Position numbers and translations under genes: made by a program
The notes under the pieces: generated by a model
The model's database searches: none
What the model saw: only the letters and a program-made list of their open reading frames with translations
What the model was told of the DNA's origin: nothing
Source: Mobula hypostoma
Lineage: Eukaryota
Direction of reading: 5' to 3'
Assembly: GCF_963921235.1 (NCBI RefSeq)
Contig: NC_086097.1
Location: 167,278,001 to 167,342,000, forward strand
Length of the DNA: 64,000 bases
Part shown: in pieces, positions 3,394-57,162 of the stretch
How the letters are laid out: each line of letters opens with the position of its first letter
Numbering within the stretch: position 1 is the first letter of the stretch

Positions 3394-5183
3394 TGACGAG
3401 CAAGAGGATAAGATGTGAGAGAATAGGACCAATCAAGTGTACAGTGGAAAAGTGCATATGGAACTGGAGGAGATAGCAGAGGTACCTAATGAGTACTTTG
3501 CTTCAGTATTCACTACGGAAAAGGATTTTGGTGACTGTAGGGATGACTTACAGTGGATTGAAAAGCTTTAGTATGTAGATATTAAGAAAGAGGATGTGCT
3601 GGAGCTTTTGGAAAGCATCAAGTTGGATAAGTCACCGGGACTGGATGAGATGTACCCCAGGTTAATGTGGGAGGTGAGGGAGGAAATTGCTGAGCCTCTG
3701 GCAATGATCTTTGCATCATCAATGGGGATGGAAGAGAATCTGGAGGATTGGAGGGTTGCGGATGTTGTTCCTTATTCAAGAAAGGGAGTAGAGATAGCCC
3801 AGGAAAATATAGACCTGTGAGTCTTACTTCAGTGGTTGGTAAGTTGATGGAGAAGATCCCAAGAGGCAGGATTTATAAATATTTGGAGAGGTATAATATG
3901 ATTAGGAATAGTCAGCGTGGCTTTGTGAAAGGCTGGTTGTGCCTTATGGGCCTGATTGAATTTTTTGAGGATGTGACTAAACACATTGATGAAGGTAGAG
4001 CAGTAGATGTAGTGTATATGGACTTCAGCAAGGCATTTGACAAGATACCCCATGCGAGGCTTATTGAGAAAGCAAGGAGGCATGGGATCCAAGGGGACAT
4101 TGCTTTGTGGATCCAAAACTGGCTTGCCCACAGAAGTGGTTGTAGATAAGTCATATTCTGCATGGAGTTCGGTCACCAGTGAAGTGCCTTGGGGATCTGT
4201 TCTGGGACCCTTACTCTTCGTGATTTTTATAAATGACCTGGATGAGGAAGTGGAGGGATGGGTTAGTAAATTTGCTGATGGCACAAAGGTTGGGGTGTTG
4301 TGGATAGTGCGGAGGGCTGTCAGAGGTTACAGCAAGACATTGATAGGATGCAAAACTGGGCTGAGAAGTGACAGATGGAGTTCAACCCAGGTAAGTGTGA
4401 AGTGGTTCATTTTGGTAGGTCAAATATGATGGCAGAATATAGTATCAATGGTAAGACTCTTGGCTGGGTGGAGGATCAGAGGGATCTTGTGGTTTGAGTC
4501 CATAGGACACTCAAAGCTGCTACGTAGGTTGATTCTGTGGTGAAGAAGGCATACAGTGCATTGGCCTTCACCAATCATGGGATTGAGTTTAAGAGCCGAG
4601 AGGTAATGTTACAGCTATATAGGACGCTGTTCAGACCCTATTTGGAGTACTGCGCTCACTTCTGGCCATCTCACTACAGGAAGGATGTAAAAAACTATAG
4701 AAAGGGTGCAGAGGAGATTTACAAGGATGTTGCCTGGATTGAAGAGCATGCCTTATGAGAATAGGTTGAGTGAACTTGGTCTTTTTCCTTGGAGTGATGG
4801 AGGATGAGAGGTGACCTGATAGAGGTGTATAAGATGATGAGAGGCATTGATCATGTGCTTCGTCAGAGGTTTCTTCCCAGGGCTGAAATGGCTATCACAA
4901 GAGGGCACATTTTTAAGGTGCTTGGAAGAAGGTACAGAGGAGATGTCAGGGGTAAGTTTTTTATGCAGAGAGTGCTGAGTGTGTGGAATGGGCTGCTGGC
5001 AACAGCGGTGGAGGCGGATACGATAGGGTCTTTTAAGAGACTCCTGGACAGGTGCATGGAGCTCAGAAAAATAGATAATATGGGTAACCCTAGGTAATTT
5101 CTAAGGTCAGGACAAGTTCGGCACAGCTTTGTGGGCCAAAGGGCCTGTATTGTACTATAGGTTTTCTATGTTTCTTCTATGTT
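3394..5183 (+). mobile_element. 5'-truncated CR1 LINE (element B) nested in A
   Basis: Frameshifted RT pieces (SPGLDEMYPRL, YRPVSLTSVVGKL, MDFSKAFDKIPH, KFADGTK) and a 3' tail of ttctatgttt repeats. Element A is contiguous across the insertion. Confidence 0.9.
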
Positions 5184-5298
5184 TCTCTTTTGCCCTTTAA
5201 TTACTTAAAAAAGCTTTTAGTATCTTCTTTGATATTAGTTGCCAGCTTCCTTTCATAATTCATCTTTTCCTTCCTCATGACCTTCTTAGTTTCCTTCT

Positions 5299-5515
5299 CA
5301 ACAGGAATTCTGCAGATGCTGGAAATTCAAGCAACATACATCAAAGTTGCTGGTGAACGCAGCAGGCCAGGCAGCATCTATAGGAAGAAGCGCAGTCGAC
5401 GTTTCAGGCCGAGACCAGTCCTGACGAAGGGTCTCGGCCTGAAACGTCGACTGCGCTTCTTCCTATAGATGCTGCCTGGCCTGCTGCGTTCACCAGCAAC
5501 TTTGATGTATGTTGC
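5299..5515. mobile_element. Palindromic non-autonomous PLE-derived insertion with 12-bp TSD
   Basis: Perfect 87-bp inverted repeat (5330-5416 / 5430-5516) with a 13-nt loop. TAGTTTCCTTCT is duplicated at 5287-5298 and 5516-5527. Confidence 0.85.
5416..5453 (+). ncRNA. Minimal type I hammerhead ribozyme motif
   Basis: Stem I CAGUC (5416-5420)/GACUG (5449-5453), core CUGACGA (5421-5427), stem II AGG/CCU, GAAA (5441-5444), palindromic ACGU helix III, GUC triplet at 5446-5448. Confidence 0.8.
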
Positions 5516-8500
5516 TAGTTTCCTTCTGCAAGTTTTTAAAAGCTTCCCAATCCTCTATCTTCCCATTAGCTTTGGCTTCCTTGTATGTCCTCTCTTTTGC
5601 TTTTACTTTGGCTCTGACTTCACTTGTCAGCCACGGTAGTGTCCTTCTTCCATTTGAAAATTTCTTCTTATTTGGAATATACCTGTCTTGCACTTTCCTC
5701 ATTTTTCGCCCATTGCTGCTCTACTTTCCTTCCTGCTAGTATCCCCTTTCCAGTCAACCTTGGCCAGTTCTCTCTCATGCCATTGTAATTTCCTTTATTC
5801 CTCTGAAATACTGACACATTGGAATTTAGTTCCTCCTCAAATTTCAAAGTGAACTCAATTATATTGTGATCACTGTTCCCTAAGTGTTCCTTAACCTTAA
5901 GCTCTTTTATTACCTCCAAATCATTGCACAACACCCAATCCAGCACAGCCAATCCCCTAGTGGGTTTAACAACTTCCCTAATGTAAACTGGGACCTTCTA
6001 AGTGCAAGTGAATTAGATCAGGCAGAATATGTTGGGTGCATCAAGGAGGGTTTCTTAAATCAATATGTAGGTAGTCCAACAGAGGAGATGGTGGATCTGG
6101 TGTGGGCAATGAGCCTGCCAGGTGGCCAACCTGTCAGTGAATGAGCAGTTAGGGTACAGTGACCCCAATTCTTTAAGTTTTAAGGTAGCTGTAGATAAGG
6201 ATGAGTACAGATATCGTTGGGAGAGTATTAAACTGGAGCTGAACAAATTACAAGAGCATTAGGCAAGAAGTAGAGAGAGTTAATTGGGAATAGTTATTTT
6301 TGGGTATATCTACATGTGACATGTGGAGGGTGTTTCAAGAGCAAATGCACAGAGTACAGTTCATATATGTTCCAGTGAGAAGGGAGGGCAAAGATGGCAA
6401 GGTAAGAGAACCTTGGATGTTGAGGGAGGTGATGGATTTGGTCAAGAAGAAAAAGAGCAAGCATATAAAATATAAGAAGCTAGAATGAAACAAAGCCCTT
6501 GATGATTATAAGAAGCTAAAAAAGAACTCAAGAAAAGACTTGGGAAAGCCAAGAGGAGCTATTAAAAGTCCTTAGTAAGTAATATTACTGAGTAAGCAAA
6601 TACTTCGTAAGAAAATCCCAAGGCGTTCTATACAGTACATATATGAGAAGCAGGAGGATAAAGAGGGAGAGGATGGGATGAGGGAGAGGGGAACATTTGC
6701 TTGGATGTGAAAATGTGGGTGAGGTCCTTAATGAGTACTTTACCTCAGAGAAGGACACGGAGGGTAGGGAGATCAGTACTGAGGGTATGGATATGCTAGG
6801 GCATTTTGAAATAAAGGGGTAGGTAGTGTTGGATCTCTTAAAGAGCAGTAAGGTGGATAGGTCCCCAGAACCTGATGGATGTACCCCAGGCAAGTTATTG
6901 AGAGAGGCAAGTGAAGAGATTGCTGAGACCTTGACCAATATCCTTGAGTCCACCAGTCCTGGAAGACTGGTGAGTGGCTAATGTTTTTTTTTCCATTTTG
7001 TAGAAGGGAACCAGGGATGATCCTAGAACCTATGGACTAGTGGGTCTCACATCAATGGTAAAGAAAAGAATTCTTAGGGATATGATTTATGAGCATTTGG
7101 AAAATCATGGAGTAATTTGGGAGAGGCATTATGCCTTTGTGTAGGGCAAATTGTGTGTTACTAACTTGATTGAGTTTTTTGTTGCGGTGATGAGGGTGGT
7201 TGATGAAAGTAGAGCTGTAGATGGTGCCAACATAGATTTTAGTAAGGCACTTGACAGGGTCCCCCATGGCGGGCTCACCCAGAAGATTAAGGTGCATAGG
7301 ATCAGTGGTGAATTGGCCACTTAGATTCAGAATTGGCTTGCTCATAGGAGACAAAGGGTGGTGGTCAAAGGGACTTATTCTAACTGGAGATCTGTGATTA
7401 ATGGTTTTCAGGCAGGGATCTGTACTAGGACCCCTGCTGTTTGTGATGTATATAAATGACCAAGATGAAAATGTAGATGGGTGGGTTAGTAAGTTTGCAG
7501 ATGATATGAAGATTGGTCATGTTATGGATAGCATAGAAGACTGACAAAGAATACAACAGAATATAGATCAGTTGCAGATATGGGCAGAGAAATGGCAGAC
7601 AGAGTTTAACCCAGCTGTATGTGAAGTGTTGCAGCTTAGCAGGTCAAATGTGAGGAGACAGTACACTGTTAAGGGCAAGACCCTTAACAGTACTGATGAA
7701 CAGAGGGATCTTGAGGTCAAAGTTCATAGCTACCTGAAGTTGGCTACACAGGTTGAGAGGGTGGTTAAGAAGGTAAATGGCATGCTTGTCTTTATTACTA
7801 GAGGCATTGAGTTCAAAAGTCAGGAAGTTATATTGAAGTTTTATAAAACTCTACTTAGGTCGCATCTGGAGTATCACATGCAGTTTTGGTCACCCCACTA
7901 TAGGAAGGATGTTGAGGCTTTGGATGGTGCAGAAGAGGTTTACCAGGACTATAACTACACTATAGTCTATACTATAACAACAGGTTGGACAAACTTGGGT
8001 TGCTTCCCCTGGAGCAATGGAAGCTAAGGGAAGATCTGATAGAGGTTCATGAGAGGCACAGATAGAGAAGACTATATTTTTTCCCCAGGGTTGAAATATC
8101 TAATACCAGAGAGCATGCATTTAAGGTAAGAGGGGTAATTTTAAAGCAGATTTGAGGGAGATTTTTTTTTTACACAGACAGTAGTGGGTGCCTGTTTTGT
8201 GCTGCCAGATACATTAGGGACTTTTCAAAGACATCTAGATAGGCACATGAATATATGGAATATGGAGGGATGTGGATATTGTGTAGGTGGAAGAGAATTG
8301 TTTAGTTAGCCGTTTGATTACAAATGTAATTGGTTCGATACAACATGTTGATGAAGGCCCTGCTGCTGTGCTGTACTGCTGTATGTTCTATGAAATTACC
8401 AAATGAAGTAGCAATTGCTGTTACATATTCAACACCACATCTGTCAGTCTTTTTTCTACTGTTAACATTTCCCATATTCTCTGGAATTTCATTGACATTG

Positions 8501-14029: not shown

Positions 14030-16205
14030 AAACTACACAAAATATTAGAGGAACTTAGCAGCTCAGGTAGCATCTATGGAAATGGATAAACAGTTGACGT
14101 TTCCAGCTGAGACCCTTCTTCAGGATTGGAAAGGAATTGGGGAGACAGCAGAATAAGAAGTTGAGGGAGGAGAAGAATGATAGCTAGAAGGTGATAGGTT
14201 GTGGTAGAAGTGGTTAAAACTAGTGTATGATGGGAATCTTGACTATCCTGGATCAGCTGGGCTTAAGACTGCTGATGCGTGTCGAGAATAACCTTGGATG
14301 ACAAGTGCAGTACCAGGAACTCCAATAAATAAGATACTCGGCCCCTGGAACAAGGAGGGAGGATGCCTCTGGGGGTAAGTTATGAGTCCTGATAACAGGA
14401 GGCAGGAAGAACCATCGCGCTGAGAGATAATTGACATCTCTTTTAAACAATTGATCATGTATTGATCATGTACTGACCCGTGGGATGCCAAACAAAGTTA
14501 TGTGAAGCTGTTTGTCTTGCTGTATAAATATGAGCTCAGTACAACCTAAAAATCAGAGTTCTGTTGGTGTTGGAAACTGCTGCAGACTGTCCATGGTATC
14601 ATATTAATAAACTCTTAAAACAAAACTCAAAGTCACTCTGGTGTTCTTAGTTAGTGTTTCCACAACACAGGTAAAGCAAGGTGGTCAAGAACGGTATAGG
14701 GCTGGAGTTGAAGGAATCTGTTAGGAGAGGAGAGTAGACCATAGGAGAAAGGGAAGGAGGAAGGGACTGACTGGGAAGTGATAGGCAGGTGAGAAGAGGT
14801 AAGAGGCCAGAGTGGGGATTAGAAAAAGGGCGGAGAGGGAGAGAATTTTCTTTTACCGGATAGAAAAATCAATATTTGATCTATCAGGTTGGAGGCTACC
14901 TAGACGGAATGTAAGGTGTTGCTCCTCCACCCTGAGGGTGGCCTCATCATGGCACAGGAGGAGGCCATGGACCAACATGTCTGAATGGGAATGGGATTGG
15001 GAATTAAAATGCTTGGCTACTGGGAAGTTCTGTTCTTGGAGAATGGAGTGAGGTGTTCGACAAATCAGCCACCCAATTTACAATGAGTCTCTCACCAATG
15101 TAGAGGAGGCCACATCAGGAGCACCAGATACAACAGACAACCCCAGCAGATTCACAGGCGAAGTGTTGCCTCACGTGGAAGGACTGTTTAGGGCCTTCAA
15201 TGGAGGTGAGGGAGGAGGTGCATGGGCAGGTGTAGCACTTAGGTCTCTTGCAGGGATAAGTGCCGTGAGGGAGATTAGTGGGAAGGGACAAATGGACAAG
15301 GGAATCTCAGAGGGAGCAATCCCTATGGAAAGTGGGGGTGAGGTAATGATGTGTTTAGTGGTAGGATCCTTTTGGAGATGGTGGAAGTTGTGGAGGATAA
15401 TGTGTTGGAGGTGGAGGCTCATCGGGTGGTGGGTAAGGACAAGAGAACTCTATCCCTGTTACTGTGGTGGGAAAATGAGCAAGCGTGTATGCCTGGGAAA
15501 TGGAGGAGATGAGGGTGAGGGCAGCATCAATGGCGGAGGAAGGAAGACCCTGTTTTTTGAAGAAGGAGGGCATTCTGGAAAGGAATTGGTGAGACCCGTC
15601 AAAAACTATGGGTGGCTTCGTTGAAAACCTCTGCTCCATCCACAAAAGCCCAACTTCAAAGTAGCCCAACATTTTAATTCCAATTCCAATTCCTGTTCTG
15701 ATATGTCATTCCATGGCCTCATCTTGTGCCACAATGAAGCCACCCTCAGGATGGAGGAGCAACACCTTATATTCTGTCTGGGTAGCCTTCAATCTGATGG
15801 CATGAATGTTGACTTCTTCCGGTAAAAAAAATTTCTCTCCCCCTCCCCTCTTCTTCTATTCCCCACTATGGCCTCTTACCTGTTCTCTCCGGCTTATCAT
15901 CTCCTCCCTGATGCCTCTCATCTTCCCCTTTCTCCTATGGTCCACTCTCATCTCCTATCAGATTCCTTCCTCTCCAGCCCTATACCTTTCTTACCCACAT
16001 GGCTTCACCTAACACCTTCTAGCTATTTTTCTTCCCTTCCCCCACCTTTTTATTCTGGCATCTTCCCCCTTCCTTTCCAGTCCTGAAGAAGGGTCTCGGC
16101 CCGAAACATCAGTTGTTTGTTCATTTCTATAGAAGTTGCCTGACCTACAGAGTTCCTCCACCATTTTGTGTATGTTGCTTTAGATTTCGAGCATCTGCAG
16201 AATAA
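14030..16205. mobile_element. Penelope-like element, inverted (minus then plus) arrangement
   Basis: Minus arm 14030-~15580 carries RT C-terminal and GIY-YIG remnants. Plus arm starts ~15585 at IGETR and ends in a pLTR with cctgaagaagggtctcggcccgaaac at 16082-16107. Confidence 0.8.
14200..14667 (+). mobile_element. Solo LTR nested in PLE
   Basis: TGTGGTAGAA...TTCCACAACA ends, TATA-like tataaata near 14523, AATAAA at 14606-14611, flanks TAGGT/CAGGT. Confidence 0.75.
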
Positions 16206-16839
16206 TTTGTGTTAATGTTCTCACTGCATGGCATTACAATGGCAAAGGACCAAATGGACTGTTTCTGCTAAATCTTTAATTCTTATGGATGCTGATGGCA
16301 CATAGCTGAACTCCTCCACCACCTATATTCCTCATCTCCTTCACATCCTCTGCGTTCTAGAACTTGGACAAGATTTGCTCTTCCCTAGTTAAGCATGGGA
16401 AAATCAGAAGCCACTGAGGTGACCTTTGTTCTCTATAGGTACTGTACGTGGAAGATGGCAATGTGTGCACATTGAGCTACATAGAGTGAAATTTACTCCA
16501 TGAAATTGACTCAGTGGAGCCACATTAGAAAAACAGAACCGGAGTCAGCTAAGTTACTACGTACTTTCTGTTAAATGCCTACAATAGTGAATGAGTTTCT
16601 AGCTCTCTGTACACATTCTCCCACCATAATTCTGAACATCTCACCTCGGAACATCATAACTTCCTTCTGAGCACTTAGCATCTGTCTGGAATCAACACTG
16701 ATCTTTCCTGTTTCAGGTAAACGTCCTCTCATTGTTTCCCATTATCATGCTCCTTTCCTTTTCTCCCTCTCATTTCAATAAAATGCTTCCCTAATGGCCA
16801 GTCCTCACGTAATCTGTATTAACCCATCTCCATGCAGTG

Positions 16840-21469: not shown

Positions 21470-22050
21470 TCAGAGACGCGAGAGATTGCAGATGCTGAAA
21501 CCTTGAGTATCGCACAAAACGCTGAAGGAACTCAATGGGTCGGACTGTATCTTTGTAGGGAAATAGACAATCACTGTTTCAGGCCAAGACCCTTCATCTG
21601 GACAGAAGGACAGAGAGGAGATAGCCAGTATAAATAGAAGGAAGGAAGAGGTGGAGCAAGAGCGAGCGAAGAGGTGACAGGTGGATCCAGATGAGCAGGA
21701 GATAGGCAGATGGGTGGGGGTGTGGGGCTGGATAGTTAGAATGCCATGAGAAGCTGGGAGGTGATAGGTGGAAGTGACAAGGGGCTGAAGATGGTGGTAT
21801 TTGATAGGAGAAGAAGGTGGTGCATAGAATAAAGCAAGGGAGTAGGGACATGTAGACAATGGACAGCTGGAGAGACTGGGGGAGGGGAAAGAGATTATGG
21901 AGATGGTGGCTAGGTAGGTCAGGCGAAGGGAGAAAGGAGGAAAGGAACAGCCAGGAAGCAATTATCAGAAGTTGGAGGATTCACTGTAATGTTACTATGT
22001 TGCAGACTTACTGGGTGGAATATGAGGTTTTGTTCCTCTACTCTTTGTTT
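21470..22050 (-). mobile_element. PLE 3' fragment
   Basis: gattgcagatgctg...gtttcaggccaagacccttcatc, a purine-rich body, then the GIY-YIG tail. Confidence 0.65.
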
Positions 22051-22903
22051 AGCCCTATTTTCCTCTCTTTCAGAAGTTGAGATTGGACACTAATTAGTGG
22101 AAGGAACACACACAAAATGCTGGAGGAACTCAGCAGATTGGGTAGCATCTATTGAAAAGTGTATATAGTCAACGTTTCAGGCCAAGACCCTTCATCAGGC
22201 GAGGGAGTCTGATAGGAGAGGGTAGAAGGCCATGGAAGATAGGGAAGGAAGAGGAGCTCCAGAGGGGTTGATGGGCAGGTAAGGAGATAAGATGAGAGAA
22301 GGAAACAGGAGTGGCAAGTAATGAAGGAGGGCTGGGGGTGGGGGGCAATTACTGGAAGTTGAAGAAATTGATGTTTATGCCATCAGGTTGGAGGCTACCC
22401 GGATGAAAGAGAAGGTGTTGCTCCTCCAACCTGAGTGTGGCCTCCAGCACATAATTCTCTGTAACTTCCATCATCTCCAATGGGATCCCAGCGCCATGCA
22501 CATCTTTCCCTTCCCCAAAGTTTCTGTGGGATCATTCCCTACACTGCTCCCTTGTCCACTTGTCCCTCGGCACTGATCTCCCTCCTGTACTTATCCTTGC
22601 AGGTGGAACAAGTGCCACTCCTGCCCCACACCTCCTCCCTCACTACAATTCTGGGCCCCAAACAGTCCTTCCAGGTGAGGTGACACCTCACCTGAGTCTG
22701 TTGGGGTTATCTACTGTATCCGGTGCTCCCAGTGTGGCCTCCTGTATATTGGTGAGACCTGATATAGATTGGGAGACTGCTTCACCAAGCACCTACCAGA
22801 AAAATCCAGAAAAAGTGGAATCCAGTAGCCAACTATTTTAATTCTACTTCCCATTCCCATTCTGACATGTCAGTCCATAGCCTCTACTGCTGCAATGAGG
22901 TCA

Positions 22904-25900
22904 TAGAACAGCACAGTACAGGCCCTTCGGCCCACAATGTTGTGCCGATCCTCAAACCCTGCCTCCCATCTAAGCCCCCACCTTAAATTCCATCATATAC
23001 CTGTCTAGTAGTCTCTTAAACTTCACTAGTGTATCTGCCTCCACCACTGACTCAGGCAGTGCATTCCACGCACCAACCACTCTCTGAGTAAAAAACCTTG
23101 ATATCCCCCTTGAACTTCCCACCCCTTACCTTAAAGCCACGTCCTCTTGTATTGAGCAGTGGTGCCCTGGGGAAGAGGCGCTGGCTATCCACTCTATCTA
23201 TTCCTCTTATTGTCTTGTACACCTCTATCATGTCTCCTCTCATCCTCCTTCTCTCCAAAGAGTAAAGCCCTAGCTCCCTTAATCTCTGATCATAATGCAT
23301 ACTTTCTAAACCAGGCAGCATTCTGGTAAATCTCCTCTGTACCCTTTCCAATGCTTCCACATCCTTCCTATAGTGAGGTGAGCAGAACTGGACACAGTAC
23401 TCCAAGTGTGGTCTAACCAGAGTTTTATAGAGCTGCATCATTACATCGTGACTATTAAACTCTATCCCTCGACTTATGAAAGCTAACACCCCATAAGCTT
23501 TCTTAACTACCCTATCCACCTGTGAGGCAACTTTCAGGGATCTGTGGACATGTACCCCGAGATCCCTCTGCTCCTCCACACTACCAAGTATCCTACCATT
23601 TACTTTGTACTCTCCCTTGGAGTTTGCCCTTCCAAAGTGTACCACCTCACACTTCTCCGGGTTGAACTCCATCTGCCACTTCTCAGCCCACTTCTGCATC
23701 CTATCAATGTCTCTCTGCAATCTTTGACAATCCTCTACACTATCTACAACACCACCAACCTTTGTGTCATCTGCAAACTTGCCAACCCACCCTTCTACCC
23801 CCACATCCAGGTCGTTAATAAAAATCACGAAAAGTAGAGGTCCCAGAACAGATCCTTGTGGGACACCACTAGTCATAATCCTACAATCTGAATGTACTCC
23901 CTCCACCACCACCCTGTGCCTTCTGCAGGCAAGCCAATTCTGAATCCACCTGGCCAAACTTCCCTGGATCCCATGCCTTCTAACTTTCTGAGTAAGCCTA
24001 CTGTGTGGAACCTTGTCAAATGCCTTACTAAAATCCATATAGATCACATCCACTGCACCACCCTCATCTACATGCCTGGTCACCTCCTCAAAGAACTCTA
24101 TCAGGCTTGTTAGACATGATCTGCCCTTCACAAAGCCATGCTGACTGTCCCTGATCAGACCATGATTCTCTAAATGCCTATAGATCCTATCTCTAAGAAT
24201 CTTTTCCAACAGCTTTCCCACCACAGACGTAAGGCTCACTGGTCTATAATTACCCGTACTATCCCTACTACCTTTTTTGAACAAGGGAACAACATTCGCC
24301 TCCCTCCAATCCTCTGGTACCATTCCCGTGGACAACGAGGACATAAAGATCCTAGCCAGAGGATCAGCAATCTCTTCTCCCGCCTCGTGGAGCAGCCTGG
24401 GGAATATTCCATCAGGCCCCGGGGACTTATCCGGCCTAATGTATTTTAACAACTCCAACACCTCCTCTCCCTTAATATCAACATGCTCCAGAACATCAAC
24501 CTCACTCATATTGTCCTCACCGTCATCAAGTTCCCTCTCATTGGTGAATACCGAAGAGAAGTATTCATTGAGGACCTCGCTCACTTCCAACAGCCTCCAG
24601 GCACATCTTCCACCTTTATCTCTAATCGGTCCTACCTTCACTCCTGTCATCCTTTTTTTCTTCACAAAATTGAAGAATGCCTTGGGGTTTTCCTTTACCT
24701 TACTAGCCAAGGCCTTCTCATGCCCCCTTCTTGCTCTTCTCAGCCCCTTCTTAAGCTCCTTTCTTGCTCCCCTATATTCCTCAATAGACCCATCTGATCC
24801 TTGCTTCCTAAACCTCATGTATGCTGCTTTCTTCCACCTGACTAGATTTTCCACCTCACTTGTCACCCATGGTTCCTTCACCCTACCATTCTTTATCTTC
24901 CTCACCAGGACAAATTTATCCCTTACGTCCTGCAAGAGATCTCTAAACATCGACCACATGTCCATAGTACATTTCCCTGCAAAAACATCATCCCAATTCG
25001 CACCCGCAAGTTCTAGCCTTATAGCCTCATAATTTGCCTTTCCCCAATTAAAAATTTTCCTGTCCTCTTTGATTCTATCCTTTTCCATGATAATTATAAA
25101 GGCCAGGGAGCGGTGGTCACTGTCCCCCAGATGCTCACCCACTGAGAGATCTGTGACCTGACCCGGTTCATTACCTAGTACTAGATCTAGTCGGCCTGTC
25201 CACATACTGTGTCAGGAATCCATCCTGGACACACTTAACAAACTCTGCCCCATCTAAACCCTTGGAACTAATCAGGTGCCAATCAATATTAGGGAAGTTA
25301 AAGTCACCCATGATAACAACCCTGTTATTTTTGCACCTTTCCAAAATCTGCCTCCCAATCTGCTCCTCTGTATCTCTGCTGCTATCAGGGGGCCTATAGA
25401 ATACCCCCAGTAGAGTAACTGCTCCCTTCTTGTTCCTGACTTCCACCCATATTGACTCAAAAGAGGATCCTGCTACATTACCCACCCTTTCTGTAGCTGT
25501 AATAGTATCCCTGACCAGTAATGCCACCCCTCCTCCCCTTTTTCCATCCTCTCTATCCTTTTTAAAGCACTGAAATCCCGGAATATTGAGAATCCATTCC
25601 TGCCCTGGTGCCAGCCAAGTCTCTGTAATGGCCACTACATCATAATTCCATGTATGTATCCAAGCTCTCAGTTCATCACCTTTGTTCCTGATGCTTCTTG
25701 CATTGAGGTACACACATTTCAGCCCTTCTACCTTACTGTCTTTACACCACTTATTCTGCTTCTCTTTCCTCAAAGCCTCTCTGTATGTTAGATCTGGCTT
25801 TACTCCAAGCACTTCTTTCACTGCTCTATCGCTTTGGGTCCCATCCCCCTCGCAAATTAGCTTAAACCCTCCCGAACCATGCTAGCAAACCTACCTGCAA

Positions 25901-26180
25901 GGATATTGCTCCACCTCGAGTTCAGGTGCAACCCATCCAATCTGTACAGGTCCCACCTTCCCCAGAAGAGATCCCAATGATCTAAAAATCTAAAACCCTG
26001 CTCCCTGCACCAACTCCTCAGCCATGCATTCAACTGCCATTTCCTCCAATTCTTACCATCTCTGTGACGTAGCACTGGCAGCAATCCTGAGAACGTCACC
26101 CTTGAGGTCCTGTTCTTCAGCCTTCTGCCTAATTCCCAAAACTCACACTTCAGGACCTCATCCCTCTTCCTGCCTATGTC
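22904..26180 (-). mobile_element. Young CR1 LINE (element D): ORF1 esterase tail, EN and RT
   Basis: SGNH-type motif FLDHWDLF...DGLHLN (25857-26170), EN YLNARS/ITETW/MGDFN (25171-25821), RT (23052-25205), CR1 3' tail. Confidence 0.95.
23052..25821 (-). pseudogene. CR1 ORF2 (APE endonuclease and reverse transcriptase), frameshifted
   Basis: ORFs 25171..25821 and 23052..25205 are split by a 17-bp deletion relative to copy E. Motifs QHGFVKGRSC, DFSKAFDKVPH, GVPQGSVLGP, KFADDTK. Confidence 0.9.
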
Positions 26181-26674
26181 ACACTTATGTTGGAGGAACA
26201 ACACCTTATACTCCGTCTGAGAAGCCTTCAACCTGATGGCATGAACATCAATTAGTCAAACTTCCAGTAATTGCCTCCCCCCTTCACCATTCCCCACTCC
26301 TGTTTTGCTCTCTCACCTTATCCATCACTTCCTCCTGGTGCTCCTTCTCCCCTTTCTTACATCGTCTTCTATACTCGATCAGATTCCCTCCCTCCGGCCC
26401 TGTATCTCTTTCACAGATCAACTTCCCAGCTCTTTACTTCAGCCCCTCCCTTTTTACAATTTTGCCCATCACCTACCACCTTGTACTTCTTCCTCCCCTT
26501 CCCTCTCAACTTTTTATCTGAGTTCTCATCTTTTTTCCAGTCCTGATGAGGGGCTGCAGCCCAAAATGTTGACAGTTTACTCTTTTCCATAGATGCTGCC
26601 TAGCCTGCTGAGATCCTCCAGTATTTTGTGTGTGTTGCCTTTGGTTTCCAGCATCTACAGATTTTCTCTTGTTT

Positions 26675-30714: not shown

Positions 30715-30930
30715 AATTAGAAACATAGATAACCTGCAGCACAATACAGGCCTTTGAAGGGTCTCGGCCTGAAACGTCGACTGCGCCTCTTCCTATAGAT
30801 GCTGCTTGGCCTGCTGCGTTCACCAGCAACTTTGATGTATGTTCCCTCTTTATGTTAGCCAGTTCAGCCCTGGGGAAAAAAGCCTCTGACTATCCACACG
30901 ATCAGTGCCTCTCATCATCTTATACACCTA
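30715..30930 (-). mobile_element. CR1 3' end (family of element B) with an internal segment replaced by an 88-bp PLE piece
   Basis: Flanks match the reverse complement of 5139-5173 and 4810-4905. 30756-30843 matches 5426-5513 with two mismatches. Confidence 0.75.
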
Positions 30931-38738: not shown

Positions 38739-39930
38739 CAGTAGCACTTACATCCACTGTGATGAAGTGCTTTGAGAGGTTGGCGATGAGACATCAAATC
38801 CTGCCCGAGGAACAACTTGGATCTGCTTCAATTTGCCTCCCGTCACAATAGGTCAGCTTCGCACGCTATTTCACTGGCTCTTCACTCAACCCTGCAACAT
38901 CCGGACAGCGAAGACGCATATATCAGGATGCTCTTCATTGACTACAACTCTGCATCCTTCACTACCATTCCCTCAAAACTAATCAATAAGCTTCAAGACC
39001 TTGGCCTCAATGCCTCCTGGTACAACTGGATCCTCAATTTTCTCACTTGCAGACCCCAGCTAGTTTAGATTGGCAACAACATCTCCTGCACAGTCTCTAT
39101 CACGACAGGTGCACCACAAGGCTCTGTACTTACCTCCTTGCTCTACTCACTTTATATTTATGAATGTGTGGCTAAGTACAGCTCCAATGCAATATTTAAG
39201 TTTGCAGATGACACCATTGCCAAACCAAAGGAAGAGACTAATCAACATATAGGAGAGAGATTGAAAATCTGTCTGAGTGATGCCACAACAAGCTCTCGCT
39301 CAATGTCAGCAAGACCAAGGAATTGATTATTAACTTCAAGAGGAGGAAACCAGAGGTCCATGAACCAGTCCTCATCATGGGATCAGAGGTGGAGAGGGTC
39401 AGTAACTTTAAATTCCTTGGCATAACCATTTCAGAGGACTTGTCCTGGGTCCAGCACTTGAGTACCAATACAAAGGAGACATGGCAGTTGCTCTACTTTC
39501 TTAGAAATTCGCAAAGATTCGGCATGTCTTCTAAAACTTTGAGAAATTTCTACAGATGCATGGTCCTTAAATGGAAAAACCTACAAAAAGTATTGGATAC
39601 GGATCAGTCCATCACGGGTAAAGCCCTCCTCACCATTGAGGACATCTACAGGGAGTGCTGTCACAGGAAACCAGCATCCATAATTAAGGACCCCCACAAT
39701 CCAGGCCATGCTCCCTTCTCACAGCTGCCATTAGGAAGGATGTACAAGAATCTTAGTTCCCACAGCAGCAGGTTCAAGCACAATTATTACTCTCAACGAT
39801 CAGGCTCCTGAATCAGAGTGGATAACTTCACTGAACACAACACTGAACTGATTCCACAACCTATAGACTCACTTTCAAGGACTCTACAACTCATGTTCTC
39901 AATATTTATTAGTTGTGTACTTATTATCAT

Positions 39931-40506: not shown

Positions 40507-40615
40507 TATTTGTATTTGCACAATTTGTTGTCTTTTGCACATTGGATGTTTGTCCATTCTGTTTCATTCTGATTCAATTCTGTTTCTTGGATTTACTGTG
40601 TATGCTTGCAAGAAA

Positions 40616-43600
40616 TCATTGGGATCTCTTCGGGGGAAGGTGGGACCTGTACAGCTTGGATGGGCTACACCTGAACTCGAGGGGGAGCAATATCCTTGCA
40701 GGTAGGTTTGCTAGCATGGTTCGGGAGGGTTTAAACTAATTTGCAAGGGGGATGGGATCCGGAGCAATAGAGCAGTGGAAGAAATGCATGGAGTAAAGCC
40801 AGATCTAACATATAAAGAGGCTTTGAGGAAAGAGAAGCAGAATAAGGGGTGTAAAGGTAGTAAGGTAGAAGGGCTGAAGTGTGTGTACTTCAATGCAAGA
40901 AGCATCAGGAACAAGGGTGTTGAACTGAGAGCTTGGATACATACATGGAATTATGATGTAGTGGCCATTACAGAGACTTGGCTGGCACCAGGGCAGGAAT
41001 GGATTCTCAATATTCCTGGATTTCAGTCCTTTAAAAGGGATAGAGGGGGGCGGAGGGGGGAAAAGGGGAGGGCGGATGGCATTACTAGTCAGGGATACTA
41101 TTACAGCTACAGAAAGGGTGAAAAATGTTGCAGGATCCTCTCTTGAGTCAGTATGGGTGGAAGTCAGGAACAGGAAGGGAGCAGTTACTCTATTGGGAGT
41201 ATTCTATAGGCCCCCTGGTAGCAGCAGAGATACCGAGGAGCAGATTGGGAGGTAGATTTTGGAAAGGTGCAAAAATAACAGGGTTGTTATCATGGTTCAC
41301 TTTAACTTCCCTAATATTGATTGGCACCTGATTAGTTCCAATGGTTTAGACGGGGCAGAGTTTGTTAAGTGTGTCCAGGACGGATTCCTGTCACAGTATG
41401 TTGACAGGCCGACTGGGGAGAATGCCATTCTAGATCTAGTATTAGGTAACAAACCGGGTCAGGTCACAGATCTCTCAATGGGTGAGCATCTGGGAGACAA
41501 TGACCACCGCTTCCTGGCCTTTAGCATTATCATGGAAAAGGATAGAATTAGAGAGGACAGGAAAATTTTTAATTGGCGGAAGGACAAATTATGAGGCTAT
41601 AAGGTTAGAACTTGTGGGTGTGAATTGGGATAATGTTTTTGCAGGGAAATGTACTATGGACATGTGGTCGATGTTTAGGGATCTCTTGCAGGATGTTAGG
41701 GAAAAATTTGTCCCGGTGAGGAAGATAAAGAATGGTAGGGTGAAGGAACCAGTGACAAGTGAGGTGGAAAATCTAGTCAGATGGAAGAAGGCAGCATACA
41801 TGAGGTTTAGGAAGCAAGGATCAGGTGTGTCTATTAAGGAATATAGGGTAGCAAGAAAGGAGCTTAAGAAGGGGCTGAGAAGAGCAAGAAGGGGGCATGA
41901 GAAGGCCTTGGCGAGTAGGGTAAAGGAAAACTCCAAGGCATTCTTCAAATATGTGAAGAACAAAAGGATGACAGGAGTGAAGGTAGGACTGATTAGAGAT
42001 AAAGGTGGGAAGATGTGCCTGGAGGCTGTGGAAGTGAGCGAGGTCCTCAATGAATACTTCTCTTTGGTATTCACCAATGAGAGGGAACTTGGTGACGGTG
42101 AGGACAATATGAGTGAGGTTGATGTTCTGGAGCATGTTGATATTAGGGGAGAGGAGGTGTTGGAGTTGTTAAAATACATTAGGACGAATAAGTCCGCGGG
42201 GCCTGATGGAATATTCCCCAGGCTGCTCCACGAGGTGAGAGAAGAGATTGCTGAGCCTCTGGCTGGGATCTTTATGTCCTCATTGTCCACAGGAATGGTA
42301 CCGGAGGACTGGAGGGAGGCGAGTGTTGTCCCCTTGTTCAAAAAAGGTAGTAGGGTTAGTCCGGGTAATTATAGACCAGTCAGCCTTACATCTGTGGTGG
42401 GAAAACTGTTGGAAAAGATTCTTAGAGATAGGATCTATAGGCATTTAGAGAATTATGGTCTGATAGGGACAGTCAGCATGGCTCTGTGAAGGGCAGATCG
42501 TGTCTAACAAGCCTGATAGAGTTCTTTGAGGAGGTGACCAGGCGTATAGATGAGGGTAGTGCAGTGGATGTGATCTACATGGATTTTAGTAAGGCATTTG
42601 ACAAGGTTCCACACAGTAGGCTTATTCAGAAAGTCAGAAGGCATGGGATCGAGGGAAGCTTGGCCAGGTTGGATTCAGAATTGGCTTGCCTGCCGAAGGC
42701 AGAGGATTGTGGTGGAGGGAGTACATTCGGATTGGAGGATTGTGACTAGTGGTGTCCCACAAGGATCGGTTCTGGAACCTCTACTTTTCATGATTTTTAT
42801 TAACGACCTGGATGTGGGGGTAGAAAGGTGGGTTGGCAAGTTTTCAGATGACACAAAGGTTGGTGGTGTTGTGGATAGTGTAGAGGATTGTCAAAGATTG
42901 CAGAGAGACATTGATAAGATGCAGAAGTGGGCTGAGAAGTGGCAGATGCAGTTCAACCCAGAGAAGTGTGAGGTGGTACACTTTGGAAGGACAAACTCCA
43001 AGGCAGAGTACAAAGTAAATGGCAAGATACTTGGTAGTGTAGAGGAGCAGAGGGATCTGGGGGTACATGTCCACAGATCCCTGAAAGTTGCCTCACAGGT
43101 AGATAGGGTAGTTAAGAAAGCTTATGGGGTGTTAGCTTTCATAAGTCGAGAGATAGAGTTTAAGAGTCGCGAGGTAATGATGCAGCTCTATAAAACACTG
43201 GTTAGGCCACGTTTGGAGTACTGTATCCAGTTCTGGTCACCTCACTATAGGAGGATGTGGAAGCATTGGGAAGGGTACAGACGAGATTTACCAGGACGCT
43301 GCCTGGTTTAGAGAGTATGTATTATGATCAGAGATTAAGGGAGCTAGGACTTTACTCTTTGGAGAGTAGGAGGATGAGAGGAGACATGATGGAGGTATAC
43401 AAAGTATTAAGAGGAATAGATAGAGTGGACAGCCAGCGCCTCTTCCCCAGGGCACCAAGAGGACATGGCTTTAAGGTAAGGGGTGGGAAGTTCAAGGGGG
43501 ATATTAGAGGAAGATTTTTTACTCAGAGAGTGGTTGGTGCGTGGAATGCACTGCCTGAGTCAGTGGTGGAGGCAGATACACTAATGAAGTTTAAGAGACT

Positions 43601-43719
43601 ACTAGACAGGTATATGGAGGAATTTAAGGTGGGGGGTTATATGGGAGGCAGGGTTTAAGGGTTGGCACAACATTGTGGGCTGAAGCGCCTGTACTGTGCT
43701 GTACTATTCTATGTTCTAT
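40616..43719 (+). mobile_element. Young CR1 LINE (element E), inverted near-copy of D
   Basis: ORF1 tail DGLHLNSRG, EN YFNARS/ITETW, RT in frameshifted ORFs 41482-43658, tail ctgtactattctatgttctat. Confidence 0.95.
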
Positions 43720-50269: not shown

Positions 50270-52390
50270 TCAAAATTCAAGATCCATTTATTATCAAAAA
50301 AGTATATATTATACAACCTTGAGATTGCTTACTCACAAGCAGCCTCTAAACAAGAAACCTGAAATAATCCAATTGAGAGAAAAAAATAAAAATAAAAATA
50401 AAAGACCAACACTCAATGCGCAGAAGACCAGCATTCTGAACCAAAAGTGTATCCTCAGATCCAAACCATGGATCAGCCTGGTGTAGGCCCAAAGCCTCGC
50501 TTATCAGTTAATTACATTAGTAGGGATAGTCCGGGTAATTATAGACCAGTAAGCCTTACGTCTGTGGTGGGAAAGCTGTTGGAAAAGATTCTTAGAGATA
50601 GGATCTATGGGCATTTAGAGAATCATGGTCTGATCAGGGACAGTCAGCGTGGCTTTGTGAAGGGAAGATCATGTATAACAAGCCTGATAGAGTTCTTTGA
50701 GGAGGTGACCAGGCATATAGATGAGGGTAGTGCAGTGGATGTGATCTACATGGATTTTAGTAAGACATTTGACATGGTTCCACATGGTAGGCTTATTCAG
50801 AAAGTCAGAAGGCATGGGATCTAGGGAAGTTTGGCCAGGTGGATTCAGAATTGGCTTGCCTGCAGAAGGCAGAGGGTGGTGGTGGAGGGAGTACATTCAA
50901 ATTGGAGGATTGTGACTAGTGGTGTCCCACAAGGATTGGTTCTGGGACCTCTACTTTTCGTGATTTTTATTAACGACCTGGATGTGGGGGTAGAAGGGTG
51001 GGTTGGCAAGTTTGCAGACGACACAAAGGTTGGTGGTGTTGTGGATAGTGTGGAGGATTGTTGAAGATTGCAGAGAGACATTGATAAGATGCAGAAGTGG
51101 GCTGAGAAGTGGCAGATGCAGTTCAACCCAGAGAAGTGTGAGGTGGTTCACTTTGGAAGGACAAACTCCAAGGCAGAGTACAAAGTAAATGGCAGGATAC
51201 TTGGTAGTGTGGAGGAGCAGAGGGATCTCGGGGTACATGTCCACAGATCCCTGAAAGTTACCTCACAGGCAGATAGGGTAGTTAAGAAAGCTTATAGGGT
51301 GTTAGCATTCATAAGTCGAGAGATAGGGTTTAAGAGTCATGAGGTAATAATGCAGCTCTATAAAACTCTGGTTAGGCCACACTTGGAGTACTGTGTCCAT
51401 TTCTGGTCACCTCACTATAGGAAGGGTGTGGAAGCATTGGAAAGGGTACAGAGGAGATTTACCAGAATGCTGCCTGGTTTAGAAAGTATGCATTATGATT
51501 AGAGATTAAGGGAGCTAGGGCTTTACTCTATGGAGAGAAGGAGGATAAGAGGAGACATGATAGAGGTATACAAGATATTAAGAAGAATAGACAGCCAGCG
51601 CCTCTTCCCCAGGGCACCACTGCTCAATACAAGAGGACATGGCTTTAAGGTAAGGGGTGGGAAGTTCAAGGGGGATATTAGAGGAAGGTTTTTTTACTCA
51701 GAGAGTGGTTGGTGCGTGGAATGCACTGCCTGAGTCAGTGGTGGAGGCAGATACACTGGTGAAATTTAAGAGACTACTAGACAGGTATATGGAGGAATTT
51801 AAGGTGGGGGGTTATATGGGAGGCAGGGTTTAAGGGTCGGCACTGTGCTGTACTGTTCTATGTTCCATATTTGCAGGCGTGGAACACAGCAGCCAGGGCA
51901 GTCCTCATAGCATCAGCACCACGGAGTTCACCATTATGGAGAATGAGTGAAATTTGCTCTTGTCCCGACTGACACCTTGTCTTTTCAGTCTATCTGGGCC
52001 AGCGTTTAAATTGACGCAACAACAGGACAGTGAAAGTCTCCGGTACCCTGGAGAGAAGAGTGAAAATCATGGAGAGCAAGCAAAATCAGCTCTCACCTTC
52101 GACCTGGGCTGGCGTTTAAATTGTCTGAACAGTGTAAAGTACCTCGCACTAGGACCTGGGCATCGGGCCTAGACCATGCCGCCCAGCGACTCGTTCTGGG
52201 CCTGGATTCCAGCCTGAAGCCATTCTCAAGCTCTGCAGAACAGCTCAGCACCCAGAGCAGTCTAACCTTTCACCCGGGCCAGTTGAATGTGCACCGGAAC
52301 TCCAACTGCAACGGTTCCGCAACACACCCTCTCGGCTCATCCTCTCAACTTTCCTCGCCATTGCTCGCCCCTTCACAGTTTGCGGCGATA
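50270..52390 (-). mobile_element. Non-autonomous LINE-tailed element interrupted by CR1 F
   Basis: Blocks shared with 17315-18110 and 62625-62950. The ttatcagtt|catatt junction is contiguous in the 62890 copy. Confidence 0.6.
50518..51865 (+). mobile_element. 5'-truncated young CR1 (element F), same family as D and E
   Basis: Starts at SRDSPGNYRPVSLTS, contains KFADDTK, in-frame stops at ~50822, ~51062 and ~51500, 3' tail present. Confidence 0.95.
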
Positions 52391-53300: not shown

Positions 53301-54152
53301 AAAGAAATAAAGAAAACTGATTTTTAGAGTATTTTGCAAAATTCAGGGCACTTCAAAGTGCTTTAAATACAATCAAATATTGCTAACATGTAGGAGCTAT
53401 TTAATTGTAGATAGGTACTCCACACAGATGAAATTTTGACTCCTACCTGTCTACACTAGCACAGTAGACAGTTTCCAACCCTCTTCATAAACCATCAGAT
53501 TCTCATTCCCTACTCTGTTCGGCCCAAGGACAACTTCTATCCCATTGTTGTCAGACTCTTCGACAGACTATTTGGATTATATAATGGATTCTTGACCTCA
53601 CAATCTAACTCGTTACGACCTTGCACATTATTATTTTTCCTACACTTCACTTTTCAAGTTCAAGTTGAATTGTCATTCAACCACACACTGGTACAGCCAA
53701 ACGAAACAGCGTTCCTGTGCCAACAGTCAGACACAGCACAAGACTCATTTAGCACATATAATTATGATAGCAGTAAACATACAGTCACAAAAAGTATAGC
53801 CCAAGTCCCTGAGTGTCAAGTCCTGTAGGTTGACGGTGCATGGGATGTTCTTGGATAGAGCAAGCCTGAAGCAGTCCAATCATCACATGCTAACTGAAGC
53901 CAAAGACAAGCACAATCCAGCTTGTCTTCCACCGAGCAAACATTTGGAAGCCAGCCCCAACCCAGTCACGCCACACAGCCTCATGCATCTCCACCCCTGG
54001 AAGAATCAACAGGTGACCGCAGCCATGAGGGCCTGGTCCATGCAACAATGGTGTTGAAAAAGAAAATGACATTCTCAAAGGCTTTGATGACTTGTTTTCT
54101 GGATTAAGATGTTTACCAGCATATCAAGATTGATCCAACTATTGCACCAGTC

Positions 54153-54863
54153 GTGCATGCCCTGAGAAAGATTCCAGTAGTTCTCAGGGATCAAGTACTG
54201 GAGGAGCTCCACAGAATGGAACAGGTGGGAGTCATAACAAGACAAATAGAACCGACCGACTGGGTGAATAGTATGGTGACAGTGGTCACAGAAAAAAAGA
54301 CGAGGATTTGCATGGATCCACAAGATCTCAAACAAGCCATCAAAAGAGAGCACTATCCGCTGCTCACGGTTGAAGAGGTTGTCTCCCGCATGCCTAATGC
54401 GAAATACTTTTCAGTATTAGACGCAAGTCAAGGTTTCTGGCAGATCAAGCTGGATGAAGAAAGTTCCAAATTATGCACCTTCAACACGCCCATAGGGAGA
54501 TATCGTTTCCTGCGTTTACCCATTGGGATTTCTTCTGCATCAGAGGTATTCCAGAGATCCGTGGCACAAATGATTGAAGACCTGGACAGGGTGGTCAACA
54601 TCATTGATGATTTGCTGATATGGGGTGACACAATTGAGGAACATGATCAGAGACTGAGGAAGCTCCTGGAGAGAGCACATGAGTACAACCTAAAACTGAA
54701 CAAAAGTAAATGTAAGATCAGAACCACAGAGATCAAATACATAGGTCATGTGCTCAGTGCTGATGGGCTAAAACCAGATGATGAAAAGGTCAGAGCTGTG
54801 GTACAGCTACCACCACCCAAAGACAAGCAAGAACTATTGAGGTTCATGGGCATGATACAGTAA
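54153..54863 (+). pseudogene. Gypsy-type reverse transcriptase domain
   Basis: EPTDWVNSMV, RICMDPQDL, LCTFNTPIGRYRFLRLP, IIDDLLIWG, KCKIRTTEIKYIGH. Confidence 0.9.
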
Positions 54864-55487
54864 TCTTGCCAAACTCATTCCCAACTTATCAGAGGTCAGT
54901 GTTCCACTCCACTCCGAAAGCTACTCGAGAGCATTGGAAAGACAAACAAAAGAAAAGTTTTGACATATTGAAGCAGTTGGTTACCAATGCACCAGCACTG
55001 AAGTTCTATGATGTCAATAAACCAGTGACGATGTCTGTGGATGCCAGTTTGGAGGGAATAGGAGCTGTTATACTGCAGGATGGGAAGCCTGTGGCGTATG
55101 GATCATGAGCACTTACGGACTGTCAACGCCGATATGCTCAAATCAAGAAGGAATTACTCGCCATGGTTTATGGGTGTGAGAAGTTCCACCAATATGTATA
55201 TGGCAAAGAAATCCAGGTTGAGAGAGATCACAAACCACTTGAGAGCATCTTCAAAAAGCTACTCCACCAAGCTCCTATGAGGCTGCAAAGGATGCTTCTC
55301 AGGATACAGAGGTACACTCTCACAGTCACCTGTAAGCCAGGAAAAGAACTGCACATTGCTGATGCTTTGAGCCGTGCTTACCTCAAAGAGCAAAAGGAAG
55401 AGTTGCTAGGAAGAGAGCTGGAGGTCAACCTCAACTACCCATCGTCATGAGAAGTTGAACATGTTCAGGAAAGTGACTGCAGATGAT

Positions 55488-55831
55488 AGAAACCATAGAA
55501 ACACTACAGCACAGAAACAGGCCTTTTGGCCCATCTTGGCTGTGCCAAACCATTTTCTGCCTAGTCCCACTGACCTGCACACGGACCATATCCCTCCATA
55601 CACGTCCCATCCATGTATCTGTCCAATTTATTCTTAAATGTTAAAAAAGAACCCACATTTACCACCTCGTCTGGCAGCTCATTCCATACTTCTATCACTC
55701 TTTGTGTGAAGAAGCCCCCCCTTAATGTTCCCCTTAAACTTTTCCCCCCTCACCCTTAACCCATGTCCTCTGATTTTTTTCTCCCCTTGCCTCAGTGGAA
55801 AAAGCCTGCTTGCATTCACTCTATCTACACC
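55488..55831 (-). mobile_element. CR1 3' end inserted into Gypsy pol
   Basis: CR1 tail (agaaaccatagaaacactacagcacag). ATGAT is duplicated at 55483-55487 and 55832-55836, and pol reads FRKVTADD|PEMQIL across the insertion. Confidence 0.85.
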
Positions 55832-57162
55832 ATGATCCTGAAATGCAAATACTAAGAGACATTACAATGAATGGATGGCCAACAGAAAGAAAAGATGTTC
55901 CAAAGGAGATGCAGAAATACTGGACATTTAAAGAGGAAATCAGCTATGCATCAGGACTAATGTTTAAAACGGCAAAACTCATCGTACCAAACCAAATGAG
56001 ACAGGAGATGCTCAACAGAATTCACGAGTCACACCTGGGGATAGTGAAATGTAAAGAAAGAGCAAGGGACATTCTCTTTTGGCCAGGCATGTCAACTCAG
56101 ATAGAGGACATTGTGTCTCAGTGTGCTGTCTGTAATGAAAACAAAAACAGCAATCCAAGAGAGCCTCCGTTTCCCCACCCACTACCAGGAAGACCATGGG
56201 AGAAGATTGGCACAGATCTCTTTCACTACAGTGGTACAGAATATCTGCTTTGTGTGGACTACTATTCAAAATATCCGGAGATCACCAAGTTAAGTGACAC
56301 GTCCAGTCGAGGTGTCATTACCGCAATGAAGTCAACATTCACAAGACATGTTATTCCAGATATTGTCGTTAGTGACAATGGTCCACAATATGCCAGTGGT
56401 GAGTTCAGAGGGTTCTCAGAAAGCTGGGAATTTCAACATGTTACTTCCAGTCCAGGGCACGCTCAGTCTAATGGACAAGCAGAGAGAACTGTACAAACTG
56501 TCAAAAACATGCTCAAGAAGGCACATAGCAGCAACAGTGACTCTTACATTGTTCTGCTTGAATACCGCAATGCACCGACCGAGGGTGTGGGGTTCTCTCC
56601 TGCGCAGCTGTTGATGGGACGTCGTCTGAAGTCCAAACTGCCAACATCCACAACTCTACTGACTCCTGAAGGTAATGCTCAAGTACATGACAAGCAAAAG
56701 TACAAACAAATAAACCAAAAGGGCTACTATGACAGACATACAAGACAGTTGCCAGATCTACATACAGGTGAAAATGTCAGAATACAGAGAGGAGACACTT
56801 GGCAACCAGCTGTGGTTGTGAACAGACATCAGCAACCAAGATCCTTCATAGTTCACACGCCGGGTGGAAGAGTCTACAGGAGGAACAGGAAGCGTCTGCT
56901 GAAGACAGGCGAGAGTGAGTTTCCACGTACAGATGCACAGGACATTTCCACAGATACAGACATGGAAACAAACGACACCAAGAGTGATGCAGACCGCAAA
57001 AACACAGAGGTTACTCGAGAGACTGACACGGATGAAGGACAAAAGCACAGTCACAGTTGTATCACACACGGTCTGGGAGACAAGTCAAACTTCCAGCCAG
57101 ATACAGAGACTAGACATACATACAGTCTCACACAGTTTGAGGCAAAGTCACACATGGTATAA
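55832..57162 (+). pseudogene. Gypsy-type integrase (HHCC and DDE)
   Basis: HESH...CAVC zinc finger, TDLF, SDNGPQY, SNGQAERTV, SPAQLLMGR. Confidence 0.9.

Follow-up and report, generated by a model that had tools for sequence, protein, structure and literature searches.

A young, probably dead-on-arrival Penelope-like insertion in Mobula hypostoma consists of two head-to-head stubs and buries a hammerhead motif in a perfect hairpin

A 217-nt non-coding insert in Mobula hypostoma is very probably the recent, dead-on-arrival product of insertion by a Neptune-like Penelope-like element (PLE) with an endonuclease, and consists of two head-to-head stubs. It lies at positions 5299-5515 of the window, by which we mean the whole 64,000-nt stretch analyzed (64 kb; contig NC_086097.1, positions 167,278,001 to 167,342,000, forward strand), and it forms a hairpin. 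We are slightly more confident still that the insert is a by-product, and it most likely has no function at the locus; the step in which both target strands prime synthesis is given somewhat better than an even chance. The layout has already been described for PLEs, and the insert is a well-preserved young example of a known insertion product. As a clean example of that layout a single locus matters little; it is a data point on the open question of how PLE inverted repeats and one-sided tails originate.

Structure of the insert and its target site

The arms of the hairpin (5330-5416 and 5430-5516) are 87 nt each and 100% complementary, and enclose a loop of 13 nt. The hairpin fold has a z-score of -26.7, which was equalled by 0 of 200 shuffles. 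The 87th arm pair borrows the first base of the right target-site duplication (TSD), which amends the earlier note's description of a palindromic insert with a 12-bp TSD and mismatch-free 87-bp arms: 86 bp of the arms lie within the insert. The 12-mer TAGTTTCCTTCT is found at 5287-5298 and 5516-5527 and nowhere else on either strand of the 64-kb window. Its two copies are identical at 12/12 positions, and the insert arms show 0/86 mismatches.

Within the insert, a PLE tail of 31 nt (5299..5329, minus strand) is present on the left arm only and forms the outer 3′ end of the inverted copy. Loose contig ends before 5299 numbered 240, 226 and 24 in runs X1, X5 and X16, and the hundreds of loose ends before 5299 and 5303 have long flanks that are unalike, which shows that the tail end is a family boundary. 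The inverted copy (5330..5416, minus strand) is a 5′-truncated copy of the PLE 3′ end that ends within hammerhead stem II and lacks CUGACGA. The forward copy (5417..5515, plus strand) is likewise 5′-truncated, tail-less and 99 nt long, and includes the hairpin loop (5417-5429, plus strand).

The insertion target is a decayed CR1-type LINE ORF2 fragment on the minus strand (5176..5790, bounds approximate), recognized by tblastn of the flanks. When compared with the window's CR1 ORF, on which an RVT_1 domain was found, the flanks matched residues 93-152 and 151-189, with the two frames overlapping at the duplication. In addition, contigs that skip 5287-5515 (229 bases; joint 5286->5516, with 12 letters fitting either side) were present in X1, X5 and X8 (8, 11 and 8 contigs), and X16 had one contig with 6 letters, so that CR1 paralogues supply the sequence of the empty site in 4/4 runs. 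Because the flanks form one antisense CR1 ORF2 and empty-site contigs exist, the 12-mer is a true TSD.

An Rfam search of the insert returned no hammerhead family and eight matches, all below the gathering score. Identities as snR86 or a microRNA were rejected on that score, and the matches themselves arise because the hairpin is perfect. Pattern scans with a 25-mer gave 0 matches in metagenome contigs, and with a 22-mer 0 in the viral and 0 in the prokaryote collection; the sole 22-mer match (L001) was judged to be chance, with nothing in common by eye beyond the pattern.

Other CR1 sequences in the runs and the window also adjoin PLEs. In 21 contigs of X1 and 23 of X5 the PLE tail end abuts the 3′ terminal repeat of CR1 with nothing in between (joint 5175->5299), which suggests repeated PLE insertion at CR1 tails. 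Three CR1 copies (22903-26146, 40615-43707 and 50518-51843) are about 92-96% identical in matched segments, and one of them splits a PLE. At 30719-30929, a short minus-strand CR1 3′ fragment has about 230 bp replaced by an 88-bp young PLE sibling in the opposite orientation, an arrangement that suggests either a switch of template or an insertion that deleted part of its target.

Relationship to endonuclease-bearing PLEs

A profile of the PLE 3′ end gave 20 rows in the window, 19 of which include the 3′ end and represent 18 loci when both arms of the insert are counted once. Several copies continue upstream through a pyrimidine-rich tract into coding DNA, and six extend far upstream. The 3′ end of the insert is 74-76% identical to a window copy that is continuous with GIY-YIG endonuclease coding DNA, which bears out the PLE origin first proposed. 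The closest sibling in the window (30756..30843, plus strand) is 97.7% identical over 88 nt, has a single arm and starts inside the hammerhead.

Two older arrangements resemble the insert in being inverted. One is a head-to-head pair (14030..16218) whose copies meet within the coding region, near 15600, and which ties the 3′ end to GIY-YIG coding DNA; the other is a partial tandem plus inverted copy (21481..26672) with its junction near 22444 in coding DNA, split by a CR1. Only 6-7-nt chance matches were found when a TSD was sought for these pairs. Since no TSD was found and the copies resemble each other at about 80% or below, these older arrangements may not be single events, and that at 21481..26672 may be more than one.

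The 63-aa frame from the 14030..16218 pair matched 329 proteins at E<=0.001 in a full HMMER search, the best two being stingray proteins (78% and 75% identical). Ten of the 329 were scanned, and eight matched GIY-YIG (E 4.6e-9 to 0.002; four at or above the Pfam cut-off). Five of these eight also matched RVT_1 N-terminal of GIY-YIG, with mostly modest E-values. When searched directly, the short endonuclease fragments were not recognized in Pfam (0/5 and 0/2), in a word-index protein search, in the PDB or in the ESM Atlas (best 0.80). Because its relatives run into GIY-YIG/RVT_1 coding DNA, the insert, itself without an ORF, is by homology the 3′ end of an endonuclease-bearing PLE of cartilaginous fish. 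A three-cysteine motif seen by eye upstream of GIY-YIG in the older relatives suggests the Neptune clade, for which a linker cysteine motif is a criterion (PMC8557442).

The family is very abundant, with a summed depth over the insert of 0.9-10.5 million in X1 vs 13-38 for the single X1 contigs listed. We found no description of this PLE family for sharks or rays in the literature searched; subscription papers, Repbase/Dfam or supplements may contain one.

The published Penelope layout comprises an inverted copy, a 31-bp tail and a 9-bp TSD (PMC3846280), and one-sided tails of 30-40 bp are reported for PLE insertions (PMC8557442). The insert has the corresponding parts: a head-to-head inverted 5′-truncated copy, a tail at one end (31 nt) and a 12-bp TSD. 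Inverted termini are thus typical of PLE insertions, as had been claimed. The reverse transcriptase with C-terminal GIY-YIG that characterizes endonuclease-positive (EN+) PLEs is assigned to the family by homology only. Shared with EN+ Penelopes such as Pen2a_Av of Adineta vaga (PMC3846280; PMC8557442) and Penelope of D. virilis (PMC2377424) are the head-to-head 5′-truncated copies, the short TSD, the 31-nt tail on one arm and the landing in another non-LTR element. In contrast to what these sources describe, the insert has no ORF at all, both copies are shorter than 120 nt, and the junction falls inside the hammerhead; its TSD is 12 bp vs 8-10 bp in the rotifer examples.

Three further features of PLE copies were observed. 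An insert of about 470 bp with TATA-like and AATAAA motifs splits an older copy at 14200-14668 and may be a solo LTR. At 22199-22201, a copy lacks about 110 bp internally, and the gap stops where the hammerhead begins. A PLE-derived predicted protein (P0002), named 'mucin-2 isoform X2' by its source, matches GIY-YIG weakly, and the name is likely a misannotation.

The hammerhead motif at the junction

A minimal type I hammerhead motif spans the turn of the hairpin (5416..5453, plus strand), with features as in PMC4209133. It consists of stem I (5416-5420/5449-5453), CUGACGA (5421-5427), a bulged A5428, a 4-bp stem II (5429-5432/5437-5440) and GAAAC-GUC (5441-5448), with the predicted cut after C5448. 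The core CUGANGA, GAAA and NUH triplet are thus all present together with stems I and II, and in the isolated 38-mer four stem I pairs and stem II had pair probabilities of 0.88-1.0. No CUGANGA is found on the minus strand. Helix III is absent; positions 15.2/16.2 are palindromic (ACGU), and the 8-mer self-duplex is weak (-3.1 kcal/mol).

The claim that a complete minimal type I hammerhead starts at the inversion junction held for the core and the dimer type, and required correction in two respects. The pair that closes stem II is a G5429-U5440 wobble in place of G10.1-C11.1, which is highly conserved in minimal hammerheads (PMC4209133), so 'intact' applies to the core only. The base at 11.1 is T also in the sibling at 30756, and C in the older copies at 16077 and 20978. 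The other respect is C5416, which is supplied by the inverted arm, so that the forward copy begins at 5417; the loose-end consensus, at a low agreement of 0.52, reads T there in the subfamily.

Metazoan PLE hammerheads described in PMC4209133 share with this motif the type I arrangement, an intact core and a stem I of 5 bp; in both, helix III is missing, positions 15.2/16.2 are palindromic, and one base bulges out between 9 and 10.1. They differ from the insert in its G10.1-U11.1 wobble, its 4-bp stem II, the stem I base taken from the inverted arm and the burial of the motif in a perfect hairpin. The available text of that survey mentions neither sharks nor rays. For minimal hammerheads no cleavage was seen in monomers (PMC4209133), dimer cleavage was reported by Lunse et al. 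(via PMC6765202), and cleavage by an Anolis PLE hammerhead needed protein (PMC11167929). We found no measurement of the rate effect of a G-U at 10.1-11.1 in the available texts on minimal hammerheads.

Non-LTR retrozymes, reported in one cartilaginous fish (bioRxiv 10.64898/2026.07.22.740005), are likewise non-coding, PLE-derived and equipped with a type I hammerhead. They are described there as head-to-tail tandem units with a hammerhead in each, whereas the insert is head-to-head with a single core and so falls outside that description. A go-back joint in X1 (5455->5418, one inserted base) implies that at another place in that genome the hammerhead is duplicated head to tail, which makes it a candidate for a natural dimer.

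Competition between the hairpin and the ribozyme fold

Folding bore out the prediction that the long hairpin would trap GAAACGUC and leave CUGACGA in the loop. Once a transcript includes 17 nt or more of the left arm, the probability of the hammerhead pairs is about 0, and forcing the hammerhead fold in the full insert costs about 46 kcal/mol. The isolated motif favors an inactive fold by 4 kcal/mol (-12.6 vs -8.6 kcal/mol), and without the left arm but with downstream context the hammerhead stems form at just 0.2-0.3 probability. The idea of a self-inhibited ribozyme is therefore sound as folding but not as function, since the isolated motif already prefers the inactive fold and monomers are reported inactive (PMC4209133); according to these folding models the hairpin blocks a ribozyme that is probably already silent. 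As a duplex, the insert is a putative ADAR or Dicer substrate only if it is transcribed. No locus-specific transcript was found in the runs examined, of which X16 is guessed to be RNA, and none of the contigs listed from the four runs spans either junction of the locus. Scanning of 112 of the 170 candidate non-repeat frames (>=59 aa) for a host gene gave only retroelement families and one sub-threshold match.

Junctions among related copies

Contigs of runs X1, X5, X8 and X16 were placed on positions 5000-5900 (94,805, 61,621, 44,016 and 5,055, CR1 and PLE together). The joint rows listed were 15 of 813 plus 12 of 547 with inserted letters, a selected part of 27 of 1,360. Removal of three empty-site, two CR1-related, three go-back and three duplicate rows left 16 distinct fold-back joints; this tally leaves out contigs that pass straight through an identical 5416/5417 junction, among which a sub-family may exist. 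Left ends take 14 different positions and right starts 11 among the 16 listed inverted-to-forward joints, and the longer arm is the forward one in 12, the left one in three and neither in one. The forward copy starts at 5416/5417 in 6/16 and at 5416-5423 in 8/16.

Because the junctions vary widely among the joints listed, the distinct mobile hairpin family that had been envisaged is not supported, such variation being the refuting condition set in the earlier note, and the one-off inverted insertion that the note gave as its alternative fits best. We consider it improbable that the insert belongs to a discrete non-autonomous family, whether as a copied 217-nt hairpin or as a short, SINE-like RNA that always begins where the hammerhead starts. 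The starts clustered at 5416-5423 favor such a family, as do the high abundance of the PLE and four window loci that start at profile positions 167-184, near the 5′ edge of the ribozyme (a rough test entered as 4 of 17 loci gave p 0.003-0.09, which the recount to 18 loci weakens slightly). Together the joints and loci are a weak lead that the starts are less random than pure truncation predicts. Against a family, the joints are biased to 5417, since forward homology in the reference starts there; the 178 loose ends before 5417 in X1 have the upstream pyrimidine tract as their consensus, six window copies reach far upstream, left ends vary, and the 64-kb window holds no second hairpin with the same junction. 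Among the listed joints, some may stem from fold-back during library preparation or from deletions that took place later across the tip of a hairpin.

A more specific variant, which we regard as doubtful, is that the short copies derive from a discrete RNA of about 130 nt with its 5′ boundary at the start of hammerhead stem I, and that a PLE dimer primes this RNA from both target strands, giving perfect hairpins that bury their own ribozyme and possibly feed host dsRNA silencing of the family. In older copies the hammerhead start is preceded by a pyrimidine tract plus AG and resembles a 3′ splice acceptor, and in Penelope of D. virilis an intron is reported to end at helix I (PMC4209133). If this reading were true, the formation of PLE inverted repeats could be read out from the genome as from a natural library.

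Two other explanations for the junction positions were rejected. Hammerhead cleavage does not account for the truncation, as 0/16 of the listed joints, a small sample, start at 5449 or end at its mirror, and both arms of the insert pass the cut site. A 2-bp junction microhomology, considered from the older copies, was dropped, as the subfamily appears to have T upstream.

Origin of the inverted arrangement

At two positions both arms of the insert have an allele that most of the family lacks: the prevailing base is C at 5337 (87-97% of depth in 4/4 runs) and at 5457 (89-97% of depth in 3/4 runs), so the arms were either copied from one template or homogenized, for which gene conversion could be the source. 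The 0/86 arm mismatches correspond to an arm divergence below 3.4%. A simple fold-back of the nascent cDNA is excluded: the loop belongs to the tail-less arm, which provides no template for a tail, and no complementary bases are found at the turn.

These features fit priming from both target strands. The GIY-YIG endonuclease would cut the two strands 12 nt apart, and each target 3′ end would prime reverse transcription on the same element RNA. The top-strand nick would give a 118-nt cDNA with the tail, from the outer start site, and the bottom-strand nick a 99-nt cDNA without it, from the inner start site. Both cDNAs would pass the uncut hammerhead site and stop 13 nt apart in its 5′ half, after which the two stubs would be joined end to end. 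The hammerhead would then be an inheritance from the terminal repeat of the element, and its blocking by the hairpin a side effect.

Biochemical data exist for a PLE protein. For PAc, a Poseidon PLE of Anolis carolinensis (Frangieh et al. 2024, PMC11167929), the purified protein cleaves and extends the two strands of the target, and its reverse transcription begins at two RNA positions flanking the tail, as proposed here; it uses uncleaved RNA as template, which matches the passage of both arms over the cut site. PAc is a Poseidon element, whereas the window relatives carry the Neptune-type linker cysteine motif, and the available text of that study does not derive fold-back insertions from two-strand priming. 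We found no such model for PLE fold-backs in print, although subscription papers or supplements may contain it, and we infer the connection ourselves. With a family so abundant and young, a whole-genome catalogue of junctions could test two-strand priming.

Separately, the target at 5516-5524 used by the tail-less end resembles the tail start at 5320-5330 (five matching bases and one more). Through this likeness the primer of the bottom strand may have paired with the RNA; this is one case, and it could be due to chance.

An unlikely but serious alternative keeps the same element and the same by-product status and has the inversion arise by self-priming on antisense RNA and subsequent resolution by the endonuclease, a proposal made for rotifer Penelopes on the basis of palindromes where the inverted copies meet (PMC3846280). 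Self-priming would likewise yield identical arms, and a recurrent joint at a short natural palindrome (5381->5465; 7, 6 and 5 contigs in three runs) is in keeping with it. However, the turn of the insert has no complementary bases, a tail on one arm only would require extra steps, and either arm can be the longer one among the 16 listed joints. That the insert is instead an assembly artefact, a fold-back chimera, is extremely improbable: perfect palindromes can be artefacts, and no contig among those listed from the four runs spans the locus junctions, but the exact 12-bp TSD matches an empty CR1 site, the one-sided tail stops where the family sequence does, and the left and right flanks, each of them unique, carry on a single CR1 frame. 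It is also very improbable that the insert has been kept at the locus for a function, be it as a self-inhibited ribozyme or as a regulator acting through dsRNA (ADAR, Dicer). The perfect 86-bp duplex, the suppressed hammerhead with its 46 kcal/mol penalty and the occurrence of family sequence in X16 speak for it; on the other side, the insert is young (0/86 arm mismatches, 12/12 in the TSD) and lies within a dead CR1, the 112 non-repeat frames (>=59 aa) hold no host-gene family above cut-off, no listed contig spans either locus junction, and monomers are reported inactive while the insert in addition carries the G-U at 10.1-11.1.

Other elements in the window

A Gypsy-like LTR retrotransposon pol with reverse transcriptase, RNase H and integrase is present in several broken frames at 54108-57162. 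Frames at 58941-59453 and 39281-39811 match Pfam PF09004, one of them above the cut-off. Since some LINE ORF2 proteins end in this domain, the two frames are probably what is left of LINEs rather than part of a host gene.
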